Part shown: positions 1 to 9,216 of the stretch, one piece after another | How the letters are laid out: each line of letters begins with the position of its first letter | Position numbering within the stretch: the first letter of the stretch is position 1 | Source: a virus | Taxonomy: Duplodnaviria; Heunggongvirae; Uroviricota; Caudoviricetes | DNA length: 9,216 nucleotides | Virus record (IMG/VR): IMGVR_UViG_641736222_000030 | Span: 1 to 9,216 of that record | Reading direction: 5' to 3' (one strand) | The notes under the pieces: generated by a model | The model's database searches: none | The model's input: only the letters and a program-made list of their open reading frames with translations | Told to the model about the DNA's origin: nothing | Made by a program: the position numbers and the translations under genes

Positions 1-1239
1 ATGAGCAGGGCAATTCATAGACTTAGCGACACTCTTTTACGAAAATTAAGCGGATCACCAACCACAAAAAGCACCTTTTTTAATGATGGTGGCAACCTTA
101 GCGTAAGGCATTCAACCAATGGCCTGTTAACCTGGTATTTCACTTACAGGGCTGGAACTGGTAGGCAGATATCACCGGAACGTCTGAGGCTGGGCAATTA
201 TCCCGATCTGAGCCTGAAAGCTGCCAGGGAAAAAGCGGCACAGTGTCGCGCCTGGCTGGCTGAGGGGAAAAATCCGCGCTATGAACTTAATCATGCTGTA
301 CAGGACGCGTTAGCCCCCGTGACGGTTAAGGAAGCGCTCACTTACTGGCTTGAATCGTACGCAAAGGAAAAGCGCACTGACTACGAATCACTGAAAAGCC
401 GGATCAATAAACACATAATTAGCCAGATTGGCGCTATGCCACTGGAAAAATGCGAGCTACGCCACTGGCTGGCCTGTTTTGACCAGCTTGCTAAGCGTAA
501 TCCGGTATCAGCCGGATTTTTGCTACAGGTATGCAAACAGGCGCTTAAGTACTGCCGAAAACGACGATACGCAATCAGCAACGTTCTTGATGATATGGTT
601 GTCGGTGATGTTGGGAAAAAAGCAGAAATAAGCGAGCGCGTACTAACAAACAAGGAGCTTGGGGAATTACTACGCGCCCTGGATGAAAAAATTTACCCAC
701 CGTACTACAGCGCCCTGATTCGCCTCCTGATTGTCTTCGGATGCCGTACCACTGAGCTAAGACGCTCTGAGGTCCAGGAATGGGATTTTAAAGAAATGCT
801 CTGGACCGTGCCGAAAGAACACAGCAAAACGAAGGTAGCAATATTCAGGCCAATACCGGAAGCGATCTTGCCGTTTGTCATGAAGCTGGTGGAGCAGAAC
901 AGGCACACGGGATTATTGCTCGGAGAACTGAAAGGGCAATCATCCGTATCAGAGTACGGAAGAACGGCACACAGACGCATTAATCAAGCCCCATGGACGT
1001 TGCACGACATCCGGCACACGTTTACAACGATGCTGAACGATTTAGGCGTTGATCCTCATGTAGTGGAGCAGCTAACCGCGCACCAGTTGCCAGGAATGCA
1101 ACGAGTCTATAATCACTCCCGTTATCTTGATGCAAAACGTGACGCTCTTAATCTATGGGGTGAGCGTCTCGAGCTTCTCCAGAACAATGATGAAAAAATC
1201 GTTGTTATGACCTCGCGAATTTACTCCCAAAATTCTTGA
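1..1239 (+). CDS. int: site-specific tyrosine recombinase, P4-type phage integrase (412 aa)
   Basis: Complete ORF. N-terminus (DGGNLSVRHSTNGLLTWYFTYRAGTGRQ) resembles the arm-DNA-binding domain of P4-family integrases; C-terminal catalytic domain has box I Arg (FGCRTTELRR), HxxR (LHDIRHTFTT) and a Tyr region (VYNHSRYLD). Confidence 0.93.
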   Translation: MSRAIHRLSDTLLRKLSGSPTTKSTFFNDGGNLSVRHSTNGLLTWYFTYRAGTGRQISPERLRLGNYPDLSLKAAREKAAQCRAWLAEGKNPRYELNHAVQDALAPVTVKEALTYWLESYAKEKRTDYESLKSRINKHIISQIGAMPLEKCELRHWLACFDQLAKRNPVSAGFLLQVCKQALKYCRKRRYAISNVLDDMVVGDVGKKAEISERVLTNKELGELLRALDEKIYPPYYSALIRLLIVFGCRTTELRRSEVQEWDFKEMLWTVPKEHSKTKVAIFRPIPEAILPFVMKLVEQNRHTGLLLGELKGQSSVSEYGRTAHRRINQAPWTLHDIRHTFTTMLNDLGVDPHVVEQLTAHQLPGMQRVYNHSRYLDAKRDALNLWGERLELLQNNDEKIVVMTSRIYSQNS

Positions 1240-1388
1240 CAAATTACGGCTGTTTTTCTTCGGGAAAATAGCCTTCTTAAAAAAATCGTCGAAGTTCGAC
1301 CAAAGTTCGTCGTTTTTTTATTTGTCAATCATCGAAAAAATTGAAATTCACTCTCCTGAATCCTTATTCTCTGTTTCTTGATTGTTCC

Positions 1389-1437
1389 AACACCTGATGG
1401 TTTATCTATTTGTTTTTAATGAGGTAATTCAGGTGTT
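1389..1437. repeat. perfect 9-bp inverted repeat AACACCTGA / TCAGGTGTT, 31-bp AT-rich spacer, in int-alpA intergenic region
   Basis: Read directly: AACACCTGA at 1389-1397, its reverse complement TCAGGTGTT at 1429-1437. Candidate operator or recombination-directionality site; function not established. Confidence 0.3.
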
Positions 1438-1649
1438 ATGCCAAATGACGACATTTTTTGTTGCGTCGCTTAAAAACTCGTGACACGATTTTAAACACTA
1501 ACGAGCTTCTACGAACCTTAGCGAACAAAGCCTTTAGCATGGTTGTGTTTTTAATTTAAGAGGTGAAAAAGAATCTAAGTAATATCCGATCTTATATATC
1601 TACAGCTAAGAGAAAAGTTTATATACGTAATTTTTATGTAGGTTTTTGT

Positions 1650-1859
1650 ATGCGTGAAATAAATGAAGATCGTGTAATCCGCGAAAAAGAATGCAGAGAG
1701 CTAACAGGCGTTTGCCGCACAACTCGTTACGAGATGGAAAAGCAGGGCCGCTTCCCCTCACGTATCAGTCTTGGCGGTCGTTCTGTTGGCTGGGTTAAGT
1801 CTGAGGTTATGGAATGGGTTAAAAGCCGGGATCGTATTAATTCAGGTAAGGCAGCGTAG
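1650..1859 (+). CDS. alpA: AlpA-family (phage-type MerR-like HTH) transcriptional regulator, 69 aa
   Basis: Translation MREINEDRVIREKECRELTGVCRTTRYEMEKQGRFPSRISLGGRSVGWVKSEVMEWVKSR matches the AlpA pattern (TG-x-SR-x-T-x-Y, FP-x-x-LG-x-RSV-x-W, SEV-x-x-W). ATG at 1650 chosen over the ORF-track GTG at 1563 because AlpA proteins are about 70 aa; the ribosome-binding site is weak (AGG about 8 nt upstream). Confidence 0.85.
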   Translation: MREINEDRVIREKECRELTGVCRTTRYEMEKQGRFPSRISLGGRSVGWVKSEVMEWVKSRDRINSGKAA

Positions 1860-1872
1860 GGGGAACATATGA

Positions 1873-1905
1873 CACATAAAACAAAGGCGACCTGTGGCGG
1901 TCGCC
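1873..1905 (-). terminator. hairpin GGCGACC-N6-GGTCGCC followed on the minus strand by TTTGTTTTAT; putative intrinsic terminator for the divergent RHH gene
   Basis: 7-bp stem 1886-1892 / 1899-1905. The T-tract exists only on the minus strand (plus 1874-1885 acataaaacaaa). Sits about 90 nt past the RHH stop on that strand. Confidence 0.4.
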
Positions 1906-1993
1906 AATGGGAAAACACTCAACATAAGCCCGAACATCATAGCGATTTGCTGTCTGGTGGGCAATGTGCTCAGTGTGCTGGCTTGCTGGTGGA

Positions 1994-2173
1994 CTATTCC
2001 TGCTCTTTGGCCTTGCGGCGCTGGCGGCGTTTGATTTCGCCTTTAACGGCAGTAACTATAAATTGCGCTTTGCTTTCACCTTCATCTAAATTTTTTTCTA
2101 AGTCTGCAACAACATCATGCGGGAATCTGGCATTTAACTGTTGCGACTTATTATTTGTTGAACCTGTTGCCAT
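1994..2173 (-). CDS. ribbon-helix-helix (CopG/Arc/MetJ-like) DNA-binding protein, 59 aa
   Basis: Minus-strand ORF MATGSTNNKSQQLNARFPHDVVADLEKNLDEGESKAQFIVTAVKGEIKRRQRRKAKEQE: N-terminal beta-strand (QQLNARFPHDVV), helix, then G-E-S-K helix N-cap, and a basic tail. Start at the internal ATG (plus 2171-2173) with RBS AGAGAGGA 7 nt upstream. The competing + strand reading here is Cys/Trp-rich and not protein-like. Confidence 0.6.
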   Translation of the reverse strand: MATGSTNNKSQQLNARFPHDVVADLEKNLDEGESKAQFIVTAVKGEIKRRQRRKAKEQE

Positions 2174-2189
2174 TACTGAATCCTCTCTA

Positions 2190-2290
2190 AGTTGGTGCGA
2201 TTCAGTATACACAAAAAAAATTCAGAGAAAAGGCTTGAAGTGCGATTCACTTGCTGATAGGTTAAAAACAGATGGTGCGATGCACCAAAT
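2190..2290. promoter_or_regulatory. divergent promoter/operator region with three direct repeats of GTGCGATTCA
   Basis: GTGCGATTCA at 2195-2204 and 2240-2249, plus GTGCGATGCA (one mismatch) at 2275-2284. Minus-strand -10-like TATACT (plus 2204-2209) overlaps repeat 1; plus-strand TTGAAG-17 bp-TAGGTT (2235-2263) has repeat 2 in its spacer. Confidence 0.4.
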
Positions 2291-2363
2291 AACAACGCCC
2301 CGCAGTGGTGGCACACATGCAGGGCGTCTAACAACCAACGATAGCAACAGTATCGAGGTAGCT

Positions 2364-2570
2364 ATGAGAAATCATACCACACACCCGCAAGGGCGGGACT
2401 CGCACAACCTGAATAAATACATCTGGCGTTTTATCGCCCTGAGCACGGCACAACCGCGCGTGATTACCATTGAGGCCACCAGCGAACAGGAAGCACGCCA
2501 GCAATCTCCGGCTGGCTGCGTGATGGTATTCGCTGCCCGTATTCGTCAGGGGGAAACCTATGCACAATAA
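2364..2570 (+). CDS. hypothetical small protein, 68 aa (first gene of coupled cassette)
   Basis: C-terminal 68 codons of ORF 1869-2570, beginning MRNHTTHPQGRDSHNLNKYIWRFIALSTAQ. ATG at 2364 preceded by GAGG; an alternative ATG at 2280 has a poorer RBS. Stop overlaps the next gene's start. No family recognised with confidence. Confidence 0.5.
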   Translation: MRNHTTHPQGRDSHNLNKYIWRFIALSTAQPRVITIEATSEQEARQQSPAGCVMVFAARIRQGETYAQ

Positions 2571-2784
2571 AACCACACCGGACGCAACCGCCGCCGCACT
2601 CACTACACTGATGCACGCGCTGATTGATATTTCTGTTATTGCTGACAGGGCGCATAAACACGCAGCCAGAGAATCAGAATGCATCTTCCATTATTTAGCA
2701 TTTGTGCAGCTAAAAGCCGATCAGGCACTGGATAAGGCCGGAAAAATTATCATGGCTGATGTGCAGGAGGTGCACCATGCATAA
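2560..2784 (+). CDS. hypothetical small protein, 74 aa
   Basis: ORF beginning MHNKTTPDATAAALTTLMHALIDISVIADR. RBS GGGGGA upstream; 11-nt overlap with preceding gene and 8-nt overlap (ATGCATAA) with the following gene. Confidence 0.6.
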   Translation: MHNKTTPDATAAALTTLMHALIDISVIADRAHKHAARESECIFHYLAFVQLKADQALDKAGKIIMADVQEVHHA

Positions 2785-3142
2785 CCTGTCAATTTCTGAC
2801 CTTAACAGCATTCAGTTTGACGAGAAATTTACCGGGCAGTTGCTGGTCAATGTGGAGAACGGGCGCATAGTGCGTAATTATCACCTGCCGGATGGTGCAA
2901 TTGCCGGAAGCGTTGAAGCATTGCTGGAACTGGCGGAACGTGCGCGACTGATTAAGCCGTCAACGAGCCATCACGATGATGATCTGCATTTTACCGGATG
3001 TATGGTGAGTCACTACGAAAACGGCGTCGAGGTATCCTGCGAACGGCTGCGTGATGATTGCTGTTTCGGCACACTGCCGGAATTTATCGAGTTGCTGACC
3101 AGTTGCGGTTATCATGTCATTCAGGGGGGTAAACATGCGTGA
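2777..3142 (+). CDS. hypothetical protein, 121 aa, Cys/His-rich C-terminal half
   Basis: Start at ATG 2777 with consensus RBS AGGAGG (the ORF-track start 2759 has none). C-terminal 50 aa carry Cys75, Cys88, Cys95, Cys96, Cys110 and several His, suggesting metal binding. No family recognised. Confidence 0.65.
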   Translation: MHNLSISDLNSIQFDEKFTGQLLVNVENGRIVRNYHLPDGAIAGSVEALLELAERARLIKPSTSHHDDDLHFTGCMVSHYENGVEVSCERLRDDCCFGTLPEFIELLTSCGYHVIQGGKHA

Positions 3143-3368
3143 TGATCGTTTTAATTCCCTGAAACAGGAATTTTCCGGCGTTCCTGATGATGCGGCTGAT
3201 GCGCTTTCGTCAATGCCAGAGCTTATTAGAGCGGCTTTTTTCTTACTTTCCACGAGAGAATATAAATCAACGGGGCTTGATGTACTGAATATCGCCGCCG
3301 ATTATGCGGAATATGTGGCAGAGGCGCGTTATAGAAGAAAATTTCCTGAGGATGTAAGCCATGCGTGA
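3135..3368 (+). CDS. hypothetical small protein, 77 aa
   Basis: Start ATG 3135 after GGGGGG RBS; the junction with the previous gene reads ATGCGTGA (start embedded 5 nt before upstream stop). Translation begins MRDDRFNSLKQEFSGVPDDAADAL. Confidence 0.6.
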   Translation: MRDDRFNSLKQEFSGVPDDAADALSSMPELIRAAFFLLSTREYKSTGLDVLNIAADYAEYVAEARYRRKFPEDVSHA

Positions 3369-3594
3369 TATTTACCACCAAACAATAGACCGCGCATTTC
3401 TTGCACTTTCTCACAGTGAAAACATGATGGAAATATTTCGCATATGGCTTGAAACACTTGGCGACAATGAACGCGACAAACAAAAATCAAGAATTGCCAC
3501 GGCATTAATAACGCTTCTTGAGCCTGTAATAATGGAACTGCAAGAAATAGATCTATTGCACGACAGATATAAAGAACAGCACACCGGAGAATAA
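3361..3594 (+). CDS. hypothetical small protein, 77 aa
   Basis: Same ATGCGTGA overlap junction as the previous gene; RBS GAGGA. Translation begins MRDIYHQTIDRAFLALSHSENMMEIFRIWL, predicted helical. Confidence 0.6.
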   Translation: MRDIYHQTIDRAFLALSHSENMMEIFRIWLETLGDNERDKQKSRIATALITLLEPVIMELQEIDLLHDRYKEQHTGE

Positions 3595-3599
3595 AAATA

Positions 3600-3899
3600 A
3601 TGAAACTTAAATATTCTGGCTTAACTGCCAGTGGCAACACTCACCCTAAATTTACGCGCGGTGATATTTACCGCGACCAGTACGGCGGCACGGTAATGAT
3701 TAAGGGCGTGGAAGAACGGCGCGTAACCTACCGCCGTGAAGGTTACGAATATGATTGCGTGATGCCTGTTTATCAGTTCCGGCGTGATTTTTCTCTGGTA
3801 CAGACCGCGCCGCATAACGTGCCCACCAGCAACGCCAGGGCACGGGCAAACATCCAGAAGCTGAAAACCATGATTAACGGATTCAGGGGTAAAAAATGA
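3600..3899 (+). CDS. hypothetical protein, 99 aa, coupled to replication gene
   Basis: RBS GGAGA 9 nt upstream; stop overlaps the primase start as ATGA (3896-3899). Basic protein beginning MKLKYSGLTASGNTHPKFTRGDIYRDQYGG. Confidence 0.6.
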   Translation: MKLKYSGLTASGNTHPKFTRGDIYRDQYGGTVMIKGVEERRVTYRREGYEYDCVMPVYQFRRDFSLVQTAPHNVPTSNARARANIQKLKTMINGFRGKK

Positions 3900-5650
3900 A
3901 ACTGGCACCGAACGTAAAACAGCAGTCACGCGGCATAAAACACAAAGAAACAGAAGTCATTATTTTTGCGGGTAGTGATGCCTGGGCACACGCGAAACAA
4001 TGGCAGGAACATGATGCGCGTATGGCCGGAGATAATGAGCCTCCTGTGTGGCTTGGGGAGCAGCAGTTATCAGAACTGGATAAGCTGCAAATTGTGCCGG
4101 AAGGCAGAAAATCCGTGCGCATATTCAGGGCCGGATATCTTGCGCCAGTAATGATAAAGGCGATTGGCCAGAAGCTGGCGGCGGCAGGCGTACAGGATGC
4201 AAATTTTTACCCTGATGGTATGCACGGTCAGAAGGTGGAGAACTGGCGCGAATATCTGGCCCGTGAGCGCCAGAATCTTTCTGATGGTCTGGTCATTGAG
4301 CTTCCGGTAAAGCAAAAGGCGCAACTTTCGCAGATGGCGGACAGTGAGCGCGCGCAGCTGCTTGCCGATCGCTTTGATGGCGTTTGCGTACATCCTGAAA
4401 GTGAAATCGTTCACGTATGGCGTGGCGGGGTATGGTGTCCGGTCAGCACAATGGAACTGAGCCGCGAAATGGTGGCGATCTATTCAGAGCACAGGGCCAC
4501 TTTCAGCAAGCGCGTAATCAATAACGCCGTGGAAGCGTTAAAAGTTATTGCCGAACCAATGGGCGAGCCGTCCGGCGATTTGCTGCCGTTCGCCAATGGT
4601 GCGCTTGACCTGAAAACGGGGGAATTTTCCCCGCACACGCCGGAGAACTGGATCACCACGCACAACGGCATTGAGTACACGCCACCAGCACCAGGGGAGA
4701 ACATCCGCGATAACGCGCCAAACTTTCATAAATGGCTTGAGCACGCAGCCCGAAAAGACCCGCGCAAGATGATGCGTATATGTGCCGCGCTGTACATGAT
4801 TATGGCGAACCGGTACGACTGGCAGATGTTTATTGAGGCCAGCGGAGACGGCGGGAGCGGTAAAAGTACATTCACACACATAGCCAGCCTTCTGGCAGGG
4901 AAACAGAACACGGTAAGCGCTGAAATGACATCGCTTGATGATGCTGGTGGACGTGCGCAGGTTGTCGGGAGTCGTCTTATCGTCCTGGCAGACCAGCCGA
5001 AATATACAGGCGAAGGAACGGGCATCAAGAAAATCACGGGCGGCGACCCCGTGGAAATAAACCCGAAATATGAAAAGCGTTTCACGGCGGTAATCAGGGC
5101 GGTGGTGCTGGCGACCAATAATAACCCGATGATATTCACCGAACGGGCCGGAGGTGTGGCACGTCGTCGCGTGATTTTCCGTTTCGACAATATTGTTAGT
5201 GAGGCCGAAAAAGACAGGGAACTACCGGAAAAAATTGCGGCTGAAATCCCCGTCATTATCCGCCGCTTGCTGGCGAACTTTACCGACCCTGAAAAGGCGA
5301 GGGCTTTACTACTGGAACAGCGTGACGGTGATGAAGCACTGGCAATAAAGCAACAGACGGATCCGGTTATTGAGTTTTGCCAGTTCCTGAATTTTCTGGA
5401 GGAAGCGCGCGGCCTGATGATGGGTGGCGGTGGTGATTCAGTGAAGTACACGACCAGGAACAGCCTTTACCGCGTCTATCTGGCGTTTATGGCATACGCA
5501 GGCAGGAGCAAACCGCTAAACGTGGCTGAGTTCAGCAAGGCCATGAAGCCAGCGGCGAAAGTTTACGGGCATGAATATATTACGCGAAAAGTTAAGGGAG
5601 TAACGCAGACCAACGCAATTACAACAGACGATTGCGACGCGTTTTTATAA
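3896..5650 (+). CDS. replication protein: P4-family primase C-terminal (D5_N-like) region plus SF3 helicase, probable C-terminal ori-binding region (584 aa)
   Basis: Motif LPFANGALDLKTGEFSPHTPENWIT (aa 230-255) is typical of the region preceding the helicase in P4-alpha-like proteins. Walker A GDGGSGKST (aa 317-325, nt 4844-4870), Walker B RLIVLADQ (aa 360-367), motif C VLATNNNP (aa 404-411). The N-terminal ~190 aa is not confidently a primase catalytic domain. Confidence 0.92.
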   Translation: MKLAPNVKQQSRGIKHKETEVIIFAGSDAWAHAKQWQEHDARMAGDNEPPVWLGEQQLSELDKLQIVPEGRKSVRIFRAGYLAPVMIKAIGQKLAAAGVQDANFYPDGMHGQKVENWREYLARERQNLSDGLVIELPVKQKAQLSQMADSERAQLLADRFDGVCVHPESEIVHVWRGGVWCPVSTMELSREMVAIYSEHRATFSKRVINNAVEALKVIAEPMGEPSGDLLPFANGALDLKTGEFSPHTPENWITTHNGIEYTPPAPGENIRDNAPNFHKWLEHAARKDPRKMMRICAALYMIMANRYDWQMFIEASGDGGSGKSTFTHIASLLAGKQNTVSAEMTSLDDAGGRAQVVGSRLIVLADQPKYTGEGTGIKKITGGDPVEINPKYEKRFTAVIRAVVLATNNNPMIFTERAGGVARRRVIFRFDNIVSEAEKDRELPEKIAAEIPVIIRRLLANFTDPEKARALLLEQRDGDEALAIKQQTDPVIEFCQFLNFLEEARGLMMGGGGDSVKYTTRNSLYRVYLAFMAYAGRSKPLNVAEFSKAMKPAAKVYGHEYITRKVKGVTQTNAITTDDCDAFL

Positions 5651-5661
5651 TTTTTTGTAAA

Positions 5662-5890
5662 AGCCCTCTACCCCATCTACCCGAATGAAATAAATACATA
5701 TTATTCAACATGATAAGTGGGTAGAGGGCCAGGTAGAAGGCTAATAAAAGCTCTCTACCTCTTCTACCTGATTTTATCAGTTTCAGGTAGCAGGGTAGAC
5801 GGCAGGTAGAGGAGCCCCAAAAGCTATCTACCCGCTGAAAGCCTCGCCATTACTGACATGATGAGCATTCGGGTAGATGGGTAGAGGGGG
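5662..5890. repeat. iteron array: putative origin of replication of the element
   Basis: Eleven exact copies of GGTAGA/TCTACC plus one GGTAGC variant. TCTACC at 5667, 5676, 5754, 5763, 5827; GGTAGA at 5720, 5732, 5794, 5805, 5872, 5880; GGTAGC at 5786. Mostly in pairs 8-12 bp apart. Nested inverted repeats: 5664-5682 vs 5871-5889 (19 bp, one G indel), 5663-5673 vs 5719-5729, 5730-5739 vs 5761-5770. AT-rich segment at 5683-5718. Lies directly 3' of the helicase gene. Confidence 0.55.
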
Positions 5891-5934
5891 GGGAGGCACA
5901 ACTAAAAACTTTTTAAACGAGGGGGTGAAAATAA

Positions 5935-6249
5935 ATGCGCATACATCAAAATCACTTAACAAACATGCCAGCCGAAAACATGAATCAGGGGCGACAAATG
6001 ACCAAAATTCGCAGAGACAGAACAGAGCCAAAATATAAAGCGTTAGACATGACTGAGCATACCTTAAAGGTGGCAATCAGAACGATAGACCGCCATGCGG
6101 GGGAAGGATACGCGAAAGCACATCCCGACCTGATAAGCGCATTCATGACCACGACGGCGGCAAACTTTGCCACGCTGACAGAACGGGAGATTGCCGAAGC
6201 GGAACAGGTAACAACCATCAACATTAAAACCGGAGAGGTGGAATCATGA
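5935..6249 (+). CDS. hypothetical protein, 104 aa (start uncertain; alternative ATG 5998 gives 83 aa), coupled to ssb
   Basis: ATG 5935 follows GAGGGGG; ATG 5998 follows AGGGG. Stop overlaps the ssb start as ATGA (6246-6249). No family recognised. Confidence 0.5.
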   Translation: MRIHQNHLTNMPAENMNQGRQMTKIRRDRTEPKYKALDMTEHTLKVAIRTIDRHAGEGYAKAHPDLISAFMTTTAANFATLTEREIAEAEQVTTINIKTGEVES

Positions 6250-6668
6250 CAGCACAGATAGCCGCTTACGGGCGGCTGGTGGCTGACCCACAGTTAAAGA
6301 CCACCAGCAAGGGTACACAAATGGCGATGGCGGGTATGGCTATCCCCCTGCCGTGCAGCCAGGCCGATGACGGAACGGCGACGATGTGGTTATCCGTCCT
6401 GGCGTTTGGCAGACAGGCCGACGCACTGGCAAAACACCGCAAAGGCGAGCTGGTGAGCGTGGCGGGTAACATGCAGGTAAGCCAGTGGACAGGCCAGAAC
6501 GGCGAAACGCGGCAGGGCTGGCAGGTTATCGCAGACAGCGTAATCAGTGCGAGAACGGCGCGACCGGGCGGCAAAAAAGGCCAGCAGGGGCAGGCTACTG
6601 ACGCACTGAACAGGGCAAAACAACAGGCGGGGAATGATGATCCGTACGGGGATAACATACCGTTTTAA
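6246..6668 (+). CDS. ssb: single-stranded DNA-binding protein (OB-fold), 140 aa
   Basis: Aligns by eye with E. coli SSB: IAAYGRLVADPQL vs VILVGNLGQDPEV; WLSVLAFGRQADALAKHRKGELVSVAGNMQVSQWTGQNGETRQ vs [44 protein letters not shown]; Gly/Gln-rich linker; C-terminal tip DDPYGDNIPF vs host DDDIPF. Confidence 0.85.
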   Translation: MTAQIAAYGRLVADPQLKTTSKGTQMAMAGMAIPLPCSQADDGTATMWLSVLAFGRQADALAKHRKGELVSVAGNMQVSQWTGQNGETRQGWQVIADSVISARTARPGGKKGQQGQATDALNRAKQQAGNDDPYGDNIPF

Positions 6669-6683
6669 GCAACGAGTGACAGA

Positions 6684-6708
6684 AGCCGGAGAAATCCGGC
6701 TTTTTTGT
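6684..6708 (+). terminator. rho-independent terminator after ssb
   Basis: 7-bp GC-rich stem AGCCGGA (6684-6690) / TCCGGCT (6695-6701), GAAA tetraloop, then T6 (6701-6706), 16 nt after the ssb stop. Confidence 0.7.
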
Positions 6709-6899
6709 AGGTACTCCTGGTGGGGGTGGCCTGTCCACGGGGCGGAGGGGCGCGGAAAAAGGCGCATTTTTTGATTTTTATGGCACCATCACCACCACTA
6801 TAAGTTATTGATATATTGAGGAATAAAAATTTTTAGTGTCGAATCAGGTTGTTTTTTGTTCATCACTGGAGCGTTCCCGAAAGCATTTACAAAAAAATA

Positions 6900-6944
6900 G
6901 GCGCAAAAAAAGCGCCCCCGATTGCTGTTACCGGAGGCGCTTTT
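6900..6944 (+). terminator. alternative-hairpin element with weak terminator, upstream of capsid operon
   Basis: GCGCC (6912-6916) can pair with GGCGC at 6900-6904 (7-nt A loop) or with GGCGC at 6936-6940 (extended by 6918-6920 / 6932-6934, 11-nt loop), the latter followed by TTTT (6941-6944). On the minus strand the first hairpin is followed by TATTTTTTT. Confidence 0.3.
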
Positions 6945-7025
6945 ACACGACAAAGGAGTTTTTATCGCCAGGATGACGAGTCTTAATACTGCTTCAATGG
7001 CAAAAATGCGTCAATAACTTTGCCT

Positions 7026-7065
7026 TTCTGAGAATAATCAGAAAAAACATAATCTGATTTTCAGG
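7026..7065. promoter_or_regulatory. palindromic TCTGA/TCAGA sites in the probable capsid-operon promoter region
   Basis: TTCTGA-gaataa-TCAGAA (7026-7043, perfect 6-bp arms) and TCTGA-ttt-TCAGG (7053-7065), 70-110 bp upstream of the 7136 start. Candidate activator or repressor sites. Confidence 0.35.
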
Positions 7066-7135
7066 TAGAAAATGATTTATCTATTACTTTTATCGATCAA
7101 TAATGATGCCCGTTAATCAAAACGGAGGCGGATTT

Positions 7136-7330
7136 ATGCCAGAGAACAACACCAGAAAGCCGGATAAAAGTGCCACGGTACACATAGACGCCGGAACTAT
7201 GGAGAAGATCGAACGCTATCAGCAGTTCATCAAAGATAATCACCCGGGTATGCCAGTGCCCACGAAAGGACAAATCACACGCAGCGCGGTTGAATACTGG
7301 TACAGGGCAACGTTAGGAGCCTGGCTATGA
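7136..7330 (+). CDS. small RHH-like protein, 64 aa, coupled to capsid gene
   Basis: Start ATG 7136 with GGAGG RBS 8 nt upstream (the ORF-track start 7103 has none). MPENNTRKPDKSATVHIDAGTMEKIERYQQFIKDNHPGMPVPTKGQITRSAVEYWYRATLGAWL shows a beta-strand (KSATVHID), helix, then G-Q-I-T-R-S helix N-cap. Stop overlaps the capsid start as ATGA (7327-7330). Confidence 0.55.
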   Translation: MPENNTRKPDKSATVHIDAGTMEKIERYQQFIKDNHPGMPVPTKGQITRSAVEYWYRATLGAWL

Positions 7331-9216
7331 AAACATGGTTTTCCATTAAGGCTATGGCAGATGTTGTACATGTGCGCATTTATGACGAGATCGGCGGGTA
7401 CGGTGTAAAGGCATCGGCACTTACTGACGAGATCAACGCGTGCGGTAATGTGTCTGAAATCCATCTTCGCATCCATTCACCTGGTGGCGACATCTTTGAA
7501 GGGCTGGCTATCTATAACGCCCTGAAAAATCATCCGGCAAAGAAAATTGTACACATTGAAGGCATGGCGGCTTCTATGGCCTCGTTTATTGCCATGTGTG
7601 GCGATCACATCGTTATGCCTGAAAACGCGATGATGATGATACATGCCCCCCGTGGTGTTACTGCCGGAGTGTCGGGCGACGTTCGCCGCTTTGCTGACCT
7701 GATGGACAAGCTGGGCGACACGATGGCGGAAACCTACGCCGGAAGAACGGGCAGGAGCAAACAGGAAATCACCGCCATGATGGAGGCGGAAACCTGGATG
7801 GATGGCAATGAGTGTAAGGCTAACGGCTTCGCAGATGAGGTTATAGCCGCGATTACAGCAATGGCCCGAATTGAATCAAAACGAATCGGAGATTTTTCAA
7901 ATATGCCGGAAAAAATTAAAAGCATGATCAGCCAGAAAACTACCAGTGGCGAACAGGAACGACTTAACGGCATCCGTGAATTGTTTGGCACGTTCAACGG
8001 AAGATATAACGACCTGGCTATAAGTTGTCTTGCTGATTCAGAATGTAGCGTTGAGAATGCACGCGAACGCCTTTTACTCGCTATGGGTAAAGAATCAACG
8101 CCAACAAACAAAACCACCCCCGCAAATCTTTACTACGCGTACACGGATAACGGCAACATAACCGGCGATGCAATGCGCCAGGGGCTTAATGCGCGTCTTG
8201 GTCACGAACGGGCCGAACGCGGTAATCCTTACGCCATGATGAGCCTTTTCGATATGGCACAGGCATCATTAACCCATCGTGGTATAAGCACGGGCAGCTA
8301 CGGCACACGCTCGCAGATAGTAAACGCGGCATTCACCCACAGCAGCAGCGATTTTACCGATATTCTTGCTGGTGGCGCTGAAAAATCAGTGCTTGCAGGC
8401 TGGGAGCACAGCGGCGAAACATTCCGCCAGTGGACGAAAAAAGGTTCCCTTTCAAACTTCCGGGAAGCCCGCCGCGTTGGTATGAATGGCTTCTCAACGT
8501 TAAACAAAGTGCCGGAAGGGGCAGAATATAAATACATCACCACCAGCGATCGCGGTGAACCCATCGCGCTGGCTACTTACGGGAATATTTTCAGCATTAC
8601 CCGCCAGGCGATAATCAATGATGACCTTGATCAGTTATCAACGGTGCCAATGGCTATGGGCCGTGCTGCATCAAGAACGGTGGGAAATCTGGTTAATCTG
8701 GTGCTTACAGGCAACGTAAAACTTTCTGACGGAATAGCGCTGTTTGACAAAAAACACAGCAACCTGATTGAAGCAGGACTGACAACACCGGGACTTAGTG
8801 CAGCACGTCACCTGATGCGCACACAGAAGGACAAAAATGGCGAAGTGCTGAATATTGCGCCTAAATTCCTTTTAGTTCCGGCAGCACTGGAAGATCGCGC
8901 GTTGCAGATGATTAACTCAACCGCACCTTTCGGGGCTGATAAAAACAGCGGGATCTTTAACCCGTATCACAAGCTACTTGATATCATCGTCGATCCCCGC
9001 CTTGATGATATCAGCGAAAAACAATGGTACATGCTTTCCGCACAGGGAACGGACACAATCGAGGTGGCTTATCTTGATGGCAATGACGAGCCTTACCTTG
9101 AACAGCAGGAAGGTTTTATCGTTGACGGCGTGGCCTGGAAAGTCCGTATTGATGCAGGTGTGGCAGCTCTGGATTATCGCGGTATGGTCAAATCAGGCGG
9201 GACAGATTCACTCTGA
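7327..9216 (+). CDS. fusion ORF: ClpP-like (S14) prohead serine protease domain, linker, probable HK97-fold major capsid domain (629 aa)
   Basis: N-terminal ~180 aa align with ClpP: IHSPGG vs INSPGG; GMAASMAS vs GQAASMG (Ser83, nt 7573-7575); MMIHAP vs MIHQP (His106). The C-terminal ~330 aa (from about aa 300) have the size and composition of a phage major capsid protein (FSITRQAIINDDLDQL, LLVPAALEDRALQ). No stop codon separates the two parts. Confidence 0.85.
   Translation: MKTWFSIKAMADVVHVRIYDEIGGYGVKASALTDEINACGNVSEIHLRIHSPGGDIFEGLAIYNALKNHPAKKIVHIEGMAASMASFIAMCGDHIVMPENAMMMIHAPRGVTAGVSGDVRRFADLMDKLGDTMAETYAGRTGRSKQEITAMMEAETWMDGNECKANGFADEVIAAITAMARIESKRIGDFSNMPEKIKSMISQKTTSGEQERLNGIRELFGTFNGRYNDLAISCLADSECSVENARERLLLAMGKESTPTNKTTPANLYYAYTDNGNITGDAMRQGLNARLGHERAERGNPYAMMSLFDMAQASLTHRGISTGSYGTRSQIVNAAFTHSSSDFTDILAGGAEKSVLAGWEHSGETFRQWTKKGSLSNFREARRVGMNGFSTLNKVPEGAEYKYITTSDRGEPIALATYGNIFSITRQAIINDDLDQLSTVPMAMGRAASRTVGNLVNLVLTGNVKLSDGIALFDKKHSNLIEAGLTTPGLSAARHLMRTQKDKNGEVLNIAPKFLLVPAALEDRALQMINSTAPFGADKNSGIFNPYHKLLDIIVDPRLDDISEKQWYMLSAQGTDTIEVAYLDGNDEPYLEQQEGFIVDGVAWKVRIDAGVAALDYRGMVKSGGTDSL

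Follow-up and report, generated by a model that had tools for sequence, protein, structure and literature searches.

A probable phage-inducible chromosomal island of the EcCICFT073 family at the cspD-clpS site, with a protease-capsid fusion and a lambdoid-type cos site

The 9,216-nucleotide stretch analyzed here (positions 1 to 9,216 of IMG/VR record IMGVR_UViG_641736222_000030, Caudoviricetes; hereafter the window) very probably represents most of a phage-inducible chromosomal island (PICI) belonging to the Gram-negative EcCICFT073 family and inserted at cspD/yljB-clpS by the tyrosine integrase that it encodes. An exact-protein look-up with the integrase led to contig ABHS01000018.1 (L014; assembly GCA_000171995.1), in which the window corresponds to positions 7884-17099 with 0 mismatches over 9,216 bases. 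The whole element occupies 10,685 bp of this contig. The window therefore lacks 184 nt at the left, including attL, and approximately 1.3 kb at the right, which contain a second cos site (cos2), a 93-aa open reading frame (ORF), and attR. The sequence establishes gene content, boundaries, the empty site, origin repeats, cos homology, and family membership. Coordinates refer to the window unless L014 or another copy is named, and stranded features lie on the plus strand unless stated otherwise.

Several properties support the assignment. The size of 10,685 bp falls within the 8-15 kb range of PICIs, and the element is bounded by attachment (att) sites at a listed PICI attC. An inward-facing int followed by alpA occupies the left end, and the organization is rightward with the exception of one small gene. 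The element carries its own replicon, composed of pri and an iteron origin directly 3' of it. It is devoid of the terL, portal, tail, and lysis genes needed for autonomous virions. Judged by sequence alone, it possesses cos sites of helper type, with cos1 inside the window and cos2 just past its end. Phage-dependent induction, packaging, and high-frequency transfer have been shown in this PICI family only for EcCICFT073. The initial annotation, made from the letters of the window, had described a compact element with int, alpA, a primase/helicase, an iteron origin, a single-strand DNA-binding protein (SSB), and a capsid gene. All of these are present with strong profile support. The nearly uniform orientation with overlapping junctions also holds, since all genes but one lie on the plus strand and neighbors overlap by 4-29 nt.

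The boundaries are defined by an 11-nt direct repeat, ATGATAGTTAT, with att cores at L014 positions 7700 and 18385. Comparison of both ends reads this repeat as ATGATAGTTATTTATCA at the left and ATGATAGTTATCTATCA at the right. A doubled motif, GGTGTAGT(T/C)AATGGTGTAGTTAAT, is found at each end of the element (L014 7837 and 18290), and these doubled copies are read as putative arm-type sites. The attL core is located 184 nt upstream of the window start, and the doubled arm motif 47 nt upstream of the int start codon. Chromosomal genes flank the element on both sides, namely macB, cspD, and yljB on the left and, past the 93-aa ORF, clpS and clpA on the right. A synthetic empty site, in which one core joins the left and right flanks, was queried against 5426 complete E. 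coli genomes and occurs uninterrupted in 5057 of them at 99.8% identity. The same location is documented in the literature. Table S1 of Fillol-Salom et al. 2018 (PMC6092414) records two PICIs of 10.5-10.8 kb at cspD-clpS, EcCIIHE3034 and EcCI18098, both with core ATGATAGTTAT, and the supplements of Tommasini et al. 2023 (PMC10111431) give attL and attR sequences of EcCIIHE3034 that are the same as those found here.

Three copies (L014, L005, and L008) were examined over the full element and both flanks. Neither the 10,685-bp element nor the adjacent flanks contain a terminase, portal, tail, or lysis gene, and no repressor gene occurs in the att-bounded unit or the flanks. The only structural gene of the unit is the protease-capsid fusion. 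The proposal that this is not a full prophage is thus supported beyond the window, given that tail, lysis, and head modules are missing from both the element and its chromosomal flanks, and the absence of a repressor switch, lysis, terminase, portal, and tail genes in or next to the unit sets it apart from a temperate lambdoid prophage. A tRNA or tmRNA attachment site had also been suggested. It is ruled out because the window contains no tRNA gene and the true site, cspD/yljB-clpS, is intergenic. Extension of the sequence in both directions thus yielded the expected direct repeat, ATGATAGTTAT, but neither a tRNA-type att site nor terS, terL, or portal genes. These absences are no objection to the PICI assignment because they are normal for PICIs of the EcCICFT073 family.

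A reference for the overall layout is EcCICFT073 itself (L010; Fillol-Salom et al. 2018 ISME J, 2019 Mol Cell), the prototype Gram-negative PICI, which is collinear with the window. Both islands share the order int, alpA, minus-strand ylcI/ynfO, icd-like gene, small ORFs, rgdR, pri, ori, small ORF, ssb, cos, capsid module, second cos, 93-aa ORF, and attR. Their int genes are 79% identical at the nucleotide level, the arm motif GGTGTAGTTAATGGTGTAGTTAAT is common to both, and in both the late genes lie between two cos sites. Differences concern the insertion site, which is ycfD-phoQ with core GGACATATTT in EcCICFT073 and cspD-clpS with ATGATAGTTAT here, and the late zone, which is unrelated. That of EcCICFT073 encodes a lambda E-type capsid, a head-decoration protein, RppA, and PerC, with a cos at L010 12556 that has a lambda-type cosN. 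In contrast, the island described here carries a ClpP-capsid fusion and a small ORF (ORF75), lacks Rpp and PerC, and has cos sites of CP-1639/mEp460 type. EcCIIHE3034 (L011) and EcCI18098 agree with it in site, core, overall layout, and size (10.5-10.8 kb versus 10.7 kb here), and EcCIIHE3034 additionally has one mEp460/CP-1639-type cos upstream of its capsid genes. It differs in its lambda E-type capsid, head-decoration gene, 'terminase small subunit' gene, and lambda-type second cos, where the present island has the ClpP-capsid fusion module.

The left end encodes the integration and induction functions. The tyrosine integrase (412 aa; 1..1239) matches Arm-DNA-bind_3 (1.2e-16) and Phage_integrase (2.6e-18). 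At the protein level it is 94.4% identical to the integrase of EcCIIHE3034 and 77% identical to that of EcCICFT073, and it is specific for the cspD-clpS attachment site. AlpA (69 aa) extends from a probable start at 1650 to 1859 and is recognized by PF05930 (9.8e-18) and phrog_2790. Its identity amounts to 87% with the EcCIIHE3034 protein and 56% with that of EcCICFT073. Between the two genes lies an AT-rich region (1240..1649; no strand assigned; 36-40% GC in the composition profile) in which none of the copies L014, L005, and L008, identical or nearly so, has an ORF called. The equivalent region of EcCICFT073 carries the AlpA-autoactivated promoter PalpA (PMC6092414), and by analogy the region is presumed to hold the alpA promoter.

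Induction, helper identity, packaging route, and the role of the capsid gene are aspects that we infer. The life cycle is carried over from experiments on EcCICFT073 because the key proteins are 87-99% identical to EcCICFT073 or EcCIIHE3034 proteins. In EcCICFT073, AlpA is autoactivating and switched on by helper phages, and its overexpression leads to int- and pri-dependent excision and replication (PMC6092414). AlpA is accordingly predicted, by analogy, to activate the excision-replication-packaging cycle of the present island. An induced or infecting lambdoid helper would turn on alpA, and AlpA would then activate its own rightward operon. The integrase would cut the island out at ATGATAGTTAT, after which Pri and SSB would replicate it from the GGTAGA iteron origin downstream of pri. 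Finally, the helper terminase would cut and package the DNA at an island cos, with the portal, tail, and lysis functions of the helper completing and releasing the particles.

The rep-ori segment of EcCICFT073 is a functional replicon that drives plasmid replication in published experiments. Pri (584 aa; 3896..5650), a replication initiator/helicase, is 98.6% identical to EcCICFT073 Pri and matches D5_N (1.2e-15), DUF5906 (6.3e-10), and Pox_D5. The profile TIGR01613 'primase, P4 family' scores 107.7 bits, just below its cutoff of 108.7. In a comparison with PDB sequences, residues 194-432 align with primase chain 7ola_A, and residues 488-576 with chain 1ka8, 'putative P4-specific DNA primase'. 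The designation as a P4-family primase/helicase given in the initial annotation is thus borne out for the helicase and C-terminal parts, with residues 1-150 left unassigned. Directly 3' of pri lies the iteron-type origin (5660..5890; no strand assigned), built from GGTAGA/TCTACC repeats. Eleven of the 12 GGTAGA hexamers in the window fall within 219 bp (5667-5885), arranged in alternating orientation or pairs. About 1.9 would be expected in the whole window, and a count of 12 was reached in 0 of 200 shuffles. The origin also contains a perfect 16-nt inverted repeat (5672-5687 and 5866-5881) and an AT-rich spacer (5685-5715). It belongs to a block (3135-6574; rgdR, pri, ori, ssb) with 89% nucleotide identity to EcCICFT073.

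Downstream of the origin, a small ORF of 83-104 aa (5935..6249; phrog_1231) is coupled to ssb and is 83% identical to its EcCICFT073 counterpart, which occupies the same position. The SSB (140 aa; 6246..6668; PF00436, 4.9e-15) ends in ...DNIPF and is 70% identical to the EcCICFT073 protein. A hairpin followed by a T-run (6684..6707; AGCCGG-AGAAAT-CCGGCT, then TTTTT) was noted by inspection only and was missed by the consensus scan; it has the form of an intrinsic terminator that would close the replication operon. In the O145:H28 copy (L001 18705-19115), the SSB gene contains an internal stop.

The window contains one complete lambdoid-type cos site, cos1 (6702..6869), identified by similarity to phage cos, with a cosN-like core, ACGGGGCGGAGGGGCGCGG, starting at 6737. 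Over 167 nt, cos1 is approximately 90% identical to the Rz-terS stretch of the Shiga toxin (Stx) 1 phage CP-1639 and of phage 1720a-02. The matched interval of CP-1639 has Rz on one side and the first packaging gene on the other, which is where lambda carries its cos. The alignment continues rightward and stops roughly 30 nt short of the phage terS start codon, and therefore cos1 includes a phage-like cosB. Moreover, cos1 matches the very start or end of linear genome records of mEp460 type, and the cosN-like core ACGGGGCGG...CGCGG is common to cos1 and the lambda-type site of EcCICFT073. The second site, cos2, starts 18 nt past the capsid stop codon, outside the window, and is approximately 73-83% similar to cos1. 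Its cosN lies at L014 17158-17175, 59 nt beyond the window end, whereas that of cos1 is at window positions 6737-6755. The ends generated at cos1 and cos2, were both cut, would probably not be complementary.

Published experiments on EcCICFT073 revealed two functional cos sites and dependence on the helper TerS. EcCICFT073 needs Rpp because its cosB differs from the phage cosB. In the present island, neither a window protein nor the 93-aa ORF matched CFT073 RppA or the IHE3034 terS-like gene (BLASTP, E<1e-3), and the late zone contains no ORF of the size of RppA/B/C (144-153 aa), the type that binds helper TerS. The simplest reading is that the island is probably packaged by direct cos mimicry, with cos1 copying the helper cosB, because it lacks an Rpp homolog and cos1 has a phage-like cosB. 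EcCIIHE3034 has two cos sites of different types (L011 7056 and 9497). One, mEp460/CP-1639-like, is upstream of its capsid genes, and the other, lambda-like (GGGCGGCGACCT), is upstream of its 'terminase small subunit' gene. Such a pair may mean that a single island is able to exploit two helper lineages.

The right end of the window is occupied by a fusion of a ClpP-like prohead protease, a scaffold, and an HK97-type major capsid protein (629 aa; 7327..9216), supported by NF045540 (5.3e-268), Phage_capsid_4 (8.3e-55), and CLP_protease (5.6e-33). The fusion carries the ClpP-type motifs AASMAS, MIHAP, and FADEV, and its protease domain matches structures of ClpP. The nearest homologs are the fusions of CP-1639, 1720a-02, mEp460, and several Stx-converting phages, at 51-55% identity. 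Compared with CP-1639, 35 residues (PRDTTVTIPAPAVTEPSPVTAVSDEATIRARVMAE) are deleted at residues ~209-210, in the linker after the protease domain. All 12 distinct full-length alleles are free of stops, and the pooled ratio of nonsynonymous to synonymous polymorphism (pN/pS) is 0.11. The fusion is under purifying selection. The identical capsid protein is indexed in 3068 blocks of an assembly collection. Co-assembly with helper capsids, capsid resizing, and interference with the helper are the possible roles. A parallel exists in SaPIbov5, a cos-type Staphylococcus aureus pathogenicity island (SaPI), which likewise combines a helper-type cos with a diverged homolog of the helper major capsid protein, termed Ccm (PMC5052747, PMC8569155). 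SaPIbov5 differs in its Gram-positive host background and its Stl-repressor logic. Ccm is reported to redirect capsid size and shape, whereas no capsid gene of an E. coli PICI is known to do so.

Two small ORFs accompany the cos sites. ORF75 (7136..7330; phrog_4934) is specific to PICIs and encodes 64 aa from an ATG with a GGAGG Shine-Dalgarno sequence at 7136, or 75 aa from 7103. It is coupled to the capsid gene and has a strongly conserved core. Homologous clusters number 12, all named ones being enterobacterial, and no match occurs in 50,697 phage records. No PDB sequence matched ORF75, and an AlphaFold model based on 9 sequences had a pLDDT of 59.6, too poor for a fold search. Its nature as a ribbon-helix-helix or TerS-like DNA binder is a guess from sequence. 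The 93-aa ORF (L014 17357-17638), situated outside the window after cos2 and before attR, is 78-80% identical to ORFs at the right end of EcCICFT073 and EcCIIHE3034. Its PDB matches are insignificant (E >=0.27), and the 50,697 phage records yielded nothing but one weak partial match. Each cos site is thus followed by a small PICI-only ORF, at the location where a phage places terS.

The late module is not confined to the cspD-clpS site. Its sequence (6064-9216) is 99.1% identical in elements located within terL of CP-1639-like prophages (L003, L006, L007, L009, L022, and L027), and for the copies from IMG/VR (L019, L022, and L027) the interrupted TerL shares 99% identity with that of CP-1639. 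In L006, for example, a sister PICI splits the terL of a lambdoid prophage into its ATPase and nuclease parts (1618-2655 / 2773-12640 / 12803-13915). In L009, an IS3-family element interrupts the integrase gene of the terL-embedded copy (1460-4011). These terL-embedded sisters match the published arrangement of helper-embedded PICIs (HE-PICIs; Tommasini et al.). The copy studied here is not inserted within a late gene of a helper prophage and thus stands outside that class, to which the sisters with the same late module belong. HE-PICIs as described by Tommasini, Mageeney & Williams 2023 share with it the four zones of integration, variable, replication, and late genes. The differences are the chromosomal intergenic location, an integrase only ~22% identical to the terL-targeting integrase, and a doubled arm motif GGTGTAGTTAAT, where HE-PICIs are reported with a doubled TGTATTGC.

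A third context is provided by a PICI at the yejM site (L004 7221-9352). There the same capsid protein, identical in sequence, occurs together with a PerC-family gene and another replication protein (AAA_25, 469 aa). Altogether, the same late module is joined to at least three integrases and two replication modules, and it is found in ~143-152 of the 5426 complete E. coli genomes. The late module is an exchangeable cassette, and modules pass freely between these islands, as its association with the yejM-site integrase and the AAA_25 protein in L004 shows. These comparisons also bear on helper identity. Long-tailed lambdoid or Stx phages of CP-1639/1720a-02/mEp460 type probably act as helpers because the cos1 matches and the nearest capsid homologs come from the same phages and because sister elements reside in CP-1639-like terL. 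Phages of this type possess a DUF1441-type TerS, a GpA-type TerL, and a ClpP-capsid fusion.

Some observations weigh against this account of helper and packaging route. With no more than 51-55% identity to any sequenced phage capsid, the fusion points to no exact helper. The two cos sites have mixed features. The right side of cos1 is CP-1639-like, but its cosN spacer is AGGGGCGCGG where CP-1639 has GCGGCGCGG. Conversely, the cosN of cos2 is that of CP-1639 (GCGGCGCGG), but its right side differs. Phages bearing the cosN of cos1 were sought by exact match in IMG/VR, and all 16 matches were PICIs themselves rather than phages. Direct mimicry would also be put in question if the island encoded an unrecognized Rpp analog, and ORF75 or the 93-aa ORF could be one. 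Finally, deletion of the EcCICFT073 capsid gene, which is of a different type, produced no phenotype in published work, and by analogy the capsid gene may be dispensable for transfer.

A more far-reaching interpretation of the same late module can be formulated, and we regard it as rather unlikely. It holds that the late variant defines an Rpp-independent PICI subgroup situated between classical PICIs and the capsid-forming PICIs (cf-PICIs). In such a subgroup, the fusion, with its purifying selection and its 35-aa linker deletion, would build smaller, satellite-sized shells on the helper portal, cos1 would copy cosB exactly enough to make a TerS-redirecting protein unnecessary, and the two cosN would permit packaging by two lambdoid lineages. 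Ends from mixed-site cos cutting would not be able to circularize, and ORF75 or the 93-aa ORF could act as a new kind of packaging specificity factor.

Three other explanations compete with an EcCICFT073-family PICI as such. The first is a decayed, immobile remnant of a lambdoid prophage, that is, a cryptic prophage that kept int, replication genes, and a head gene. This view has some basis, as related islands such as O-island 51 / CP-933C were annotated as cryptic prophages, the capsid gene and cos are clearly phage-derived, and damaged copies do exist (the SSB pseudogene in O145:H28 and the insertion sequence (IS) inside int in L009). Nevertheless, it is very improbable. In the present copy, all ORFs are intact and tightly packed, and both att cores and both arm motifs are preserved. 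The architecture of inward int, alpA, pri-ori, and late zone is kept across insertion sites and is unlike that of a prophage. The capsid gene evolves under purifying selection, with the pN/pS of 0.11 given above. In EcCICFT073, the homologs of the replicon and of the cos sites are functional. The association of one late module with at least three integrases and two replication modules implies ongoing mobility.

The second competitor, a P4-like satellite that exploits P2-type helpers through Sid, Psu, Delta, CI RNA immunity, and a P2-type cos, had been offered together with the PICI reading in the initial annotation, and only the PICI reading stands. P4 measures 11.6 kb. The resemblance extends to an integrative satellite of ~11 kb, an integrase of a related clade with Arm-DNA-bind_3, an AlpA/Vis-type regulator, a superfamily 3 (SF3)-type helicase whose C-terminal domain is homologous (the 1ka8 match and the near-cutoff TIGR01613 score), and cos packaging by a helper. 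Even so, a P4-like identity is scarcely credible. No ORF has a Pfam, PHROG, or NCBIfam match to Sid, Psu, Delta, or Epsilon, and Rfam contains no C4 or isrK RNA match even at E<=1. The Rfam search of the window returned only three weak sub-threshold matches to unrelated families, which were taken as chance. A plasmid-state gene set and CI RNA are not evident. The cos sites are lambdoid (CP-1639, mEp460) and not of P2 type, and the capsid gene is likewise lambdoid, which points to lambdoid instead of P2-type helpers. Gene order and sequence match EcCICFT073 and EcCIIHE3034, and the former is explicitly set apart from P4 in PMC6092414, which lists these distinctions.

The third is a cf-PICI, which would make and load capsids of its own and depend on the helper for tails alone. 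It draws on the intact protease-scaffold-capsid fusion under purifying selection but has a negligible chance of being correct, given that cf-PICIs are described as encoding all proteins for capsid making and DNA packaging (bioRxiv 10.1101/2022.09.08.507074), whereas only the protease-capsid fusion, with no terS, terL, portal, or other head gene, was found in the 10,685 bp.

The remaining genes of the PICI lie between alpA and pri. The sole minus-strand gene encodes a YlcI/YnfO-family small protein (1994..2212, minus strand; 59 aa from the probable start at 2173; NF041551, 2.3e-17; phrog_949). Its counterpart in EcCICFT073, located and oriented alike, shares 63% identity with it. An Icd-like small protein (68 aa; 2364..2570) has 98.4% identity with an EcCICFT073 protein annotated as 'host cell division inhibitor Icd-like'. 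Four overlapping small ORFs (74, ~121, ~77, and 77 aa; 2560..3594) follow, with matches only to PHROGs of unknown function and none in Pfam or PADLOC. Three of the four have EcCICFT073 counterparts at 46-90% identity. This segment is the variable zone between regulation and replication. Next comes an ortholog of RgdR (99 aa; 3600..3899; DUF4222, PF13973, 1.6e-24) with the RGD motif at residues 20-22. The protein shares 93.9% identity with CFT073 c1493, and its gene is translationally coupled to pri. ECs1581 and c1493 (RgdR) are reported to stimulate type III secretion of the enterocyte effacement locus (LEE) in enterohemorrhagic E. coli (EHEC; Flockhart et al., PMC3378721), and RgdR is listed as the accessory gene of all E. 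coli PICIs analyzed in PMC6092414. The RgdR ortholog (3600-3899), cos (6702-6869), the Icd-like ORF (2364-2570), and the minus-strand YlcI/YnfO gene (1994-2173) had all escaped the initial annotation.

A further variable position may lie between int and alpA. In E. coli O145:H28 RM12581, the closest complete-genome copy, a 257-aa gene (L001 13221-13994) occupies the place where the window has a spacer, and this position looks like a cargo slot. The 257-aa gene has no PADLOC match. Anti-phage cargo, which had been considered a common companion of such elements, was not recognized by PADLOC in any of the small ORFs, the downstream 93-aa ORF, or the O145 257-aa gene; the accessory gene is instead the virulence regulator RgdR.

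Several candidate features were rejected. A 233-aa ORF (1869-2570) and long minus-strand ORFs were treated as spurious, as they have no family matches and overlap supported genes. A 14-nt motif, ATG(G/A)TTTATCTATT, upstream of alpA and ORF75 was considered as an AlpA box. The link to AlpA is unsupported because, in L004 and L006, which combine the same late module with other left-end modules, the motif recurs only upstream of ORF75. Consensus promoter sites are no more frequent in the window than in shuffled sequence, and the terminator scan gave only a modest excess (19 versus 11.1 in shuffled sequence, sd 3.6).

In light of earlier work, AlpA induction, the Pri-ori replicon, cos packaging, late-gene capture, and the cspD-clpS site have already been published, so that the element adds an example and not a concept. 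Its late-module difference from EcCICFT073, namely the capsid type and the lack of Rpp, falls within the described 'dynamic late zone'. The island nevertheless bears on the role of capsid genes in Gram-negative PICIs and on the use of two non-identical cos sites. In terms of annotation, the stretch should be labeled as a PICI and not as a cryptic prophage. By analogy with the published effect on LEE secretion, RgdR is an accessory gene that may affect host virulence regulation. As the island is probably mobilized by lambdoid phages, including Stx-converting ones, it could spread the RgdR virulence regulator between strains and lower the yield of its helpers.

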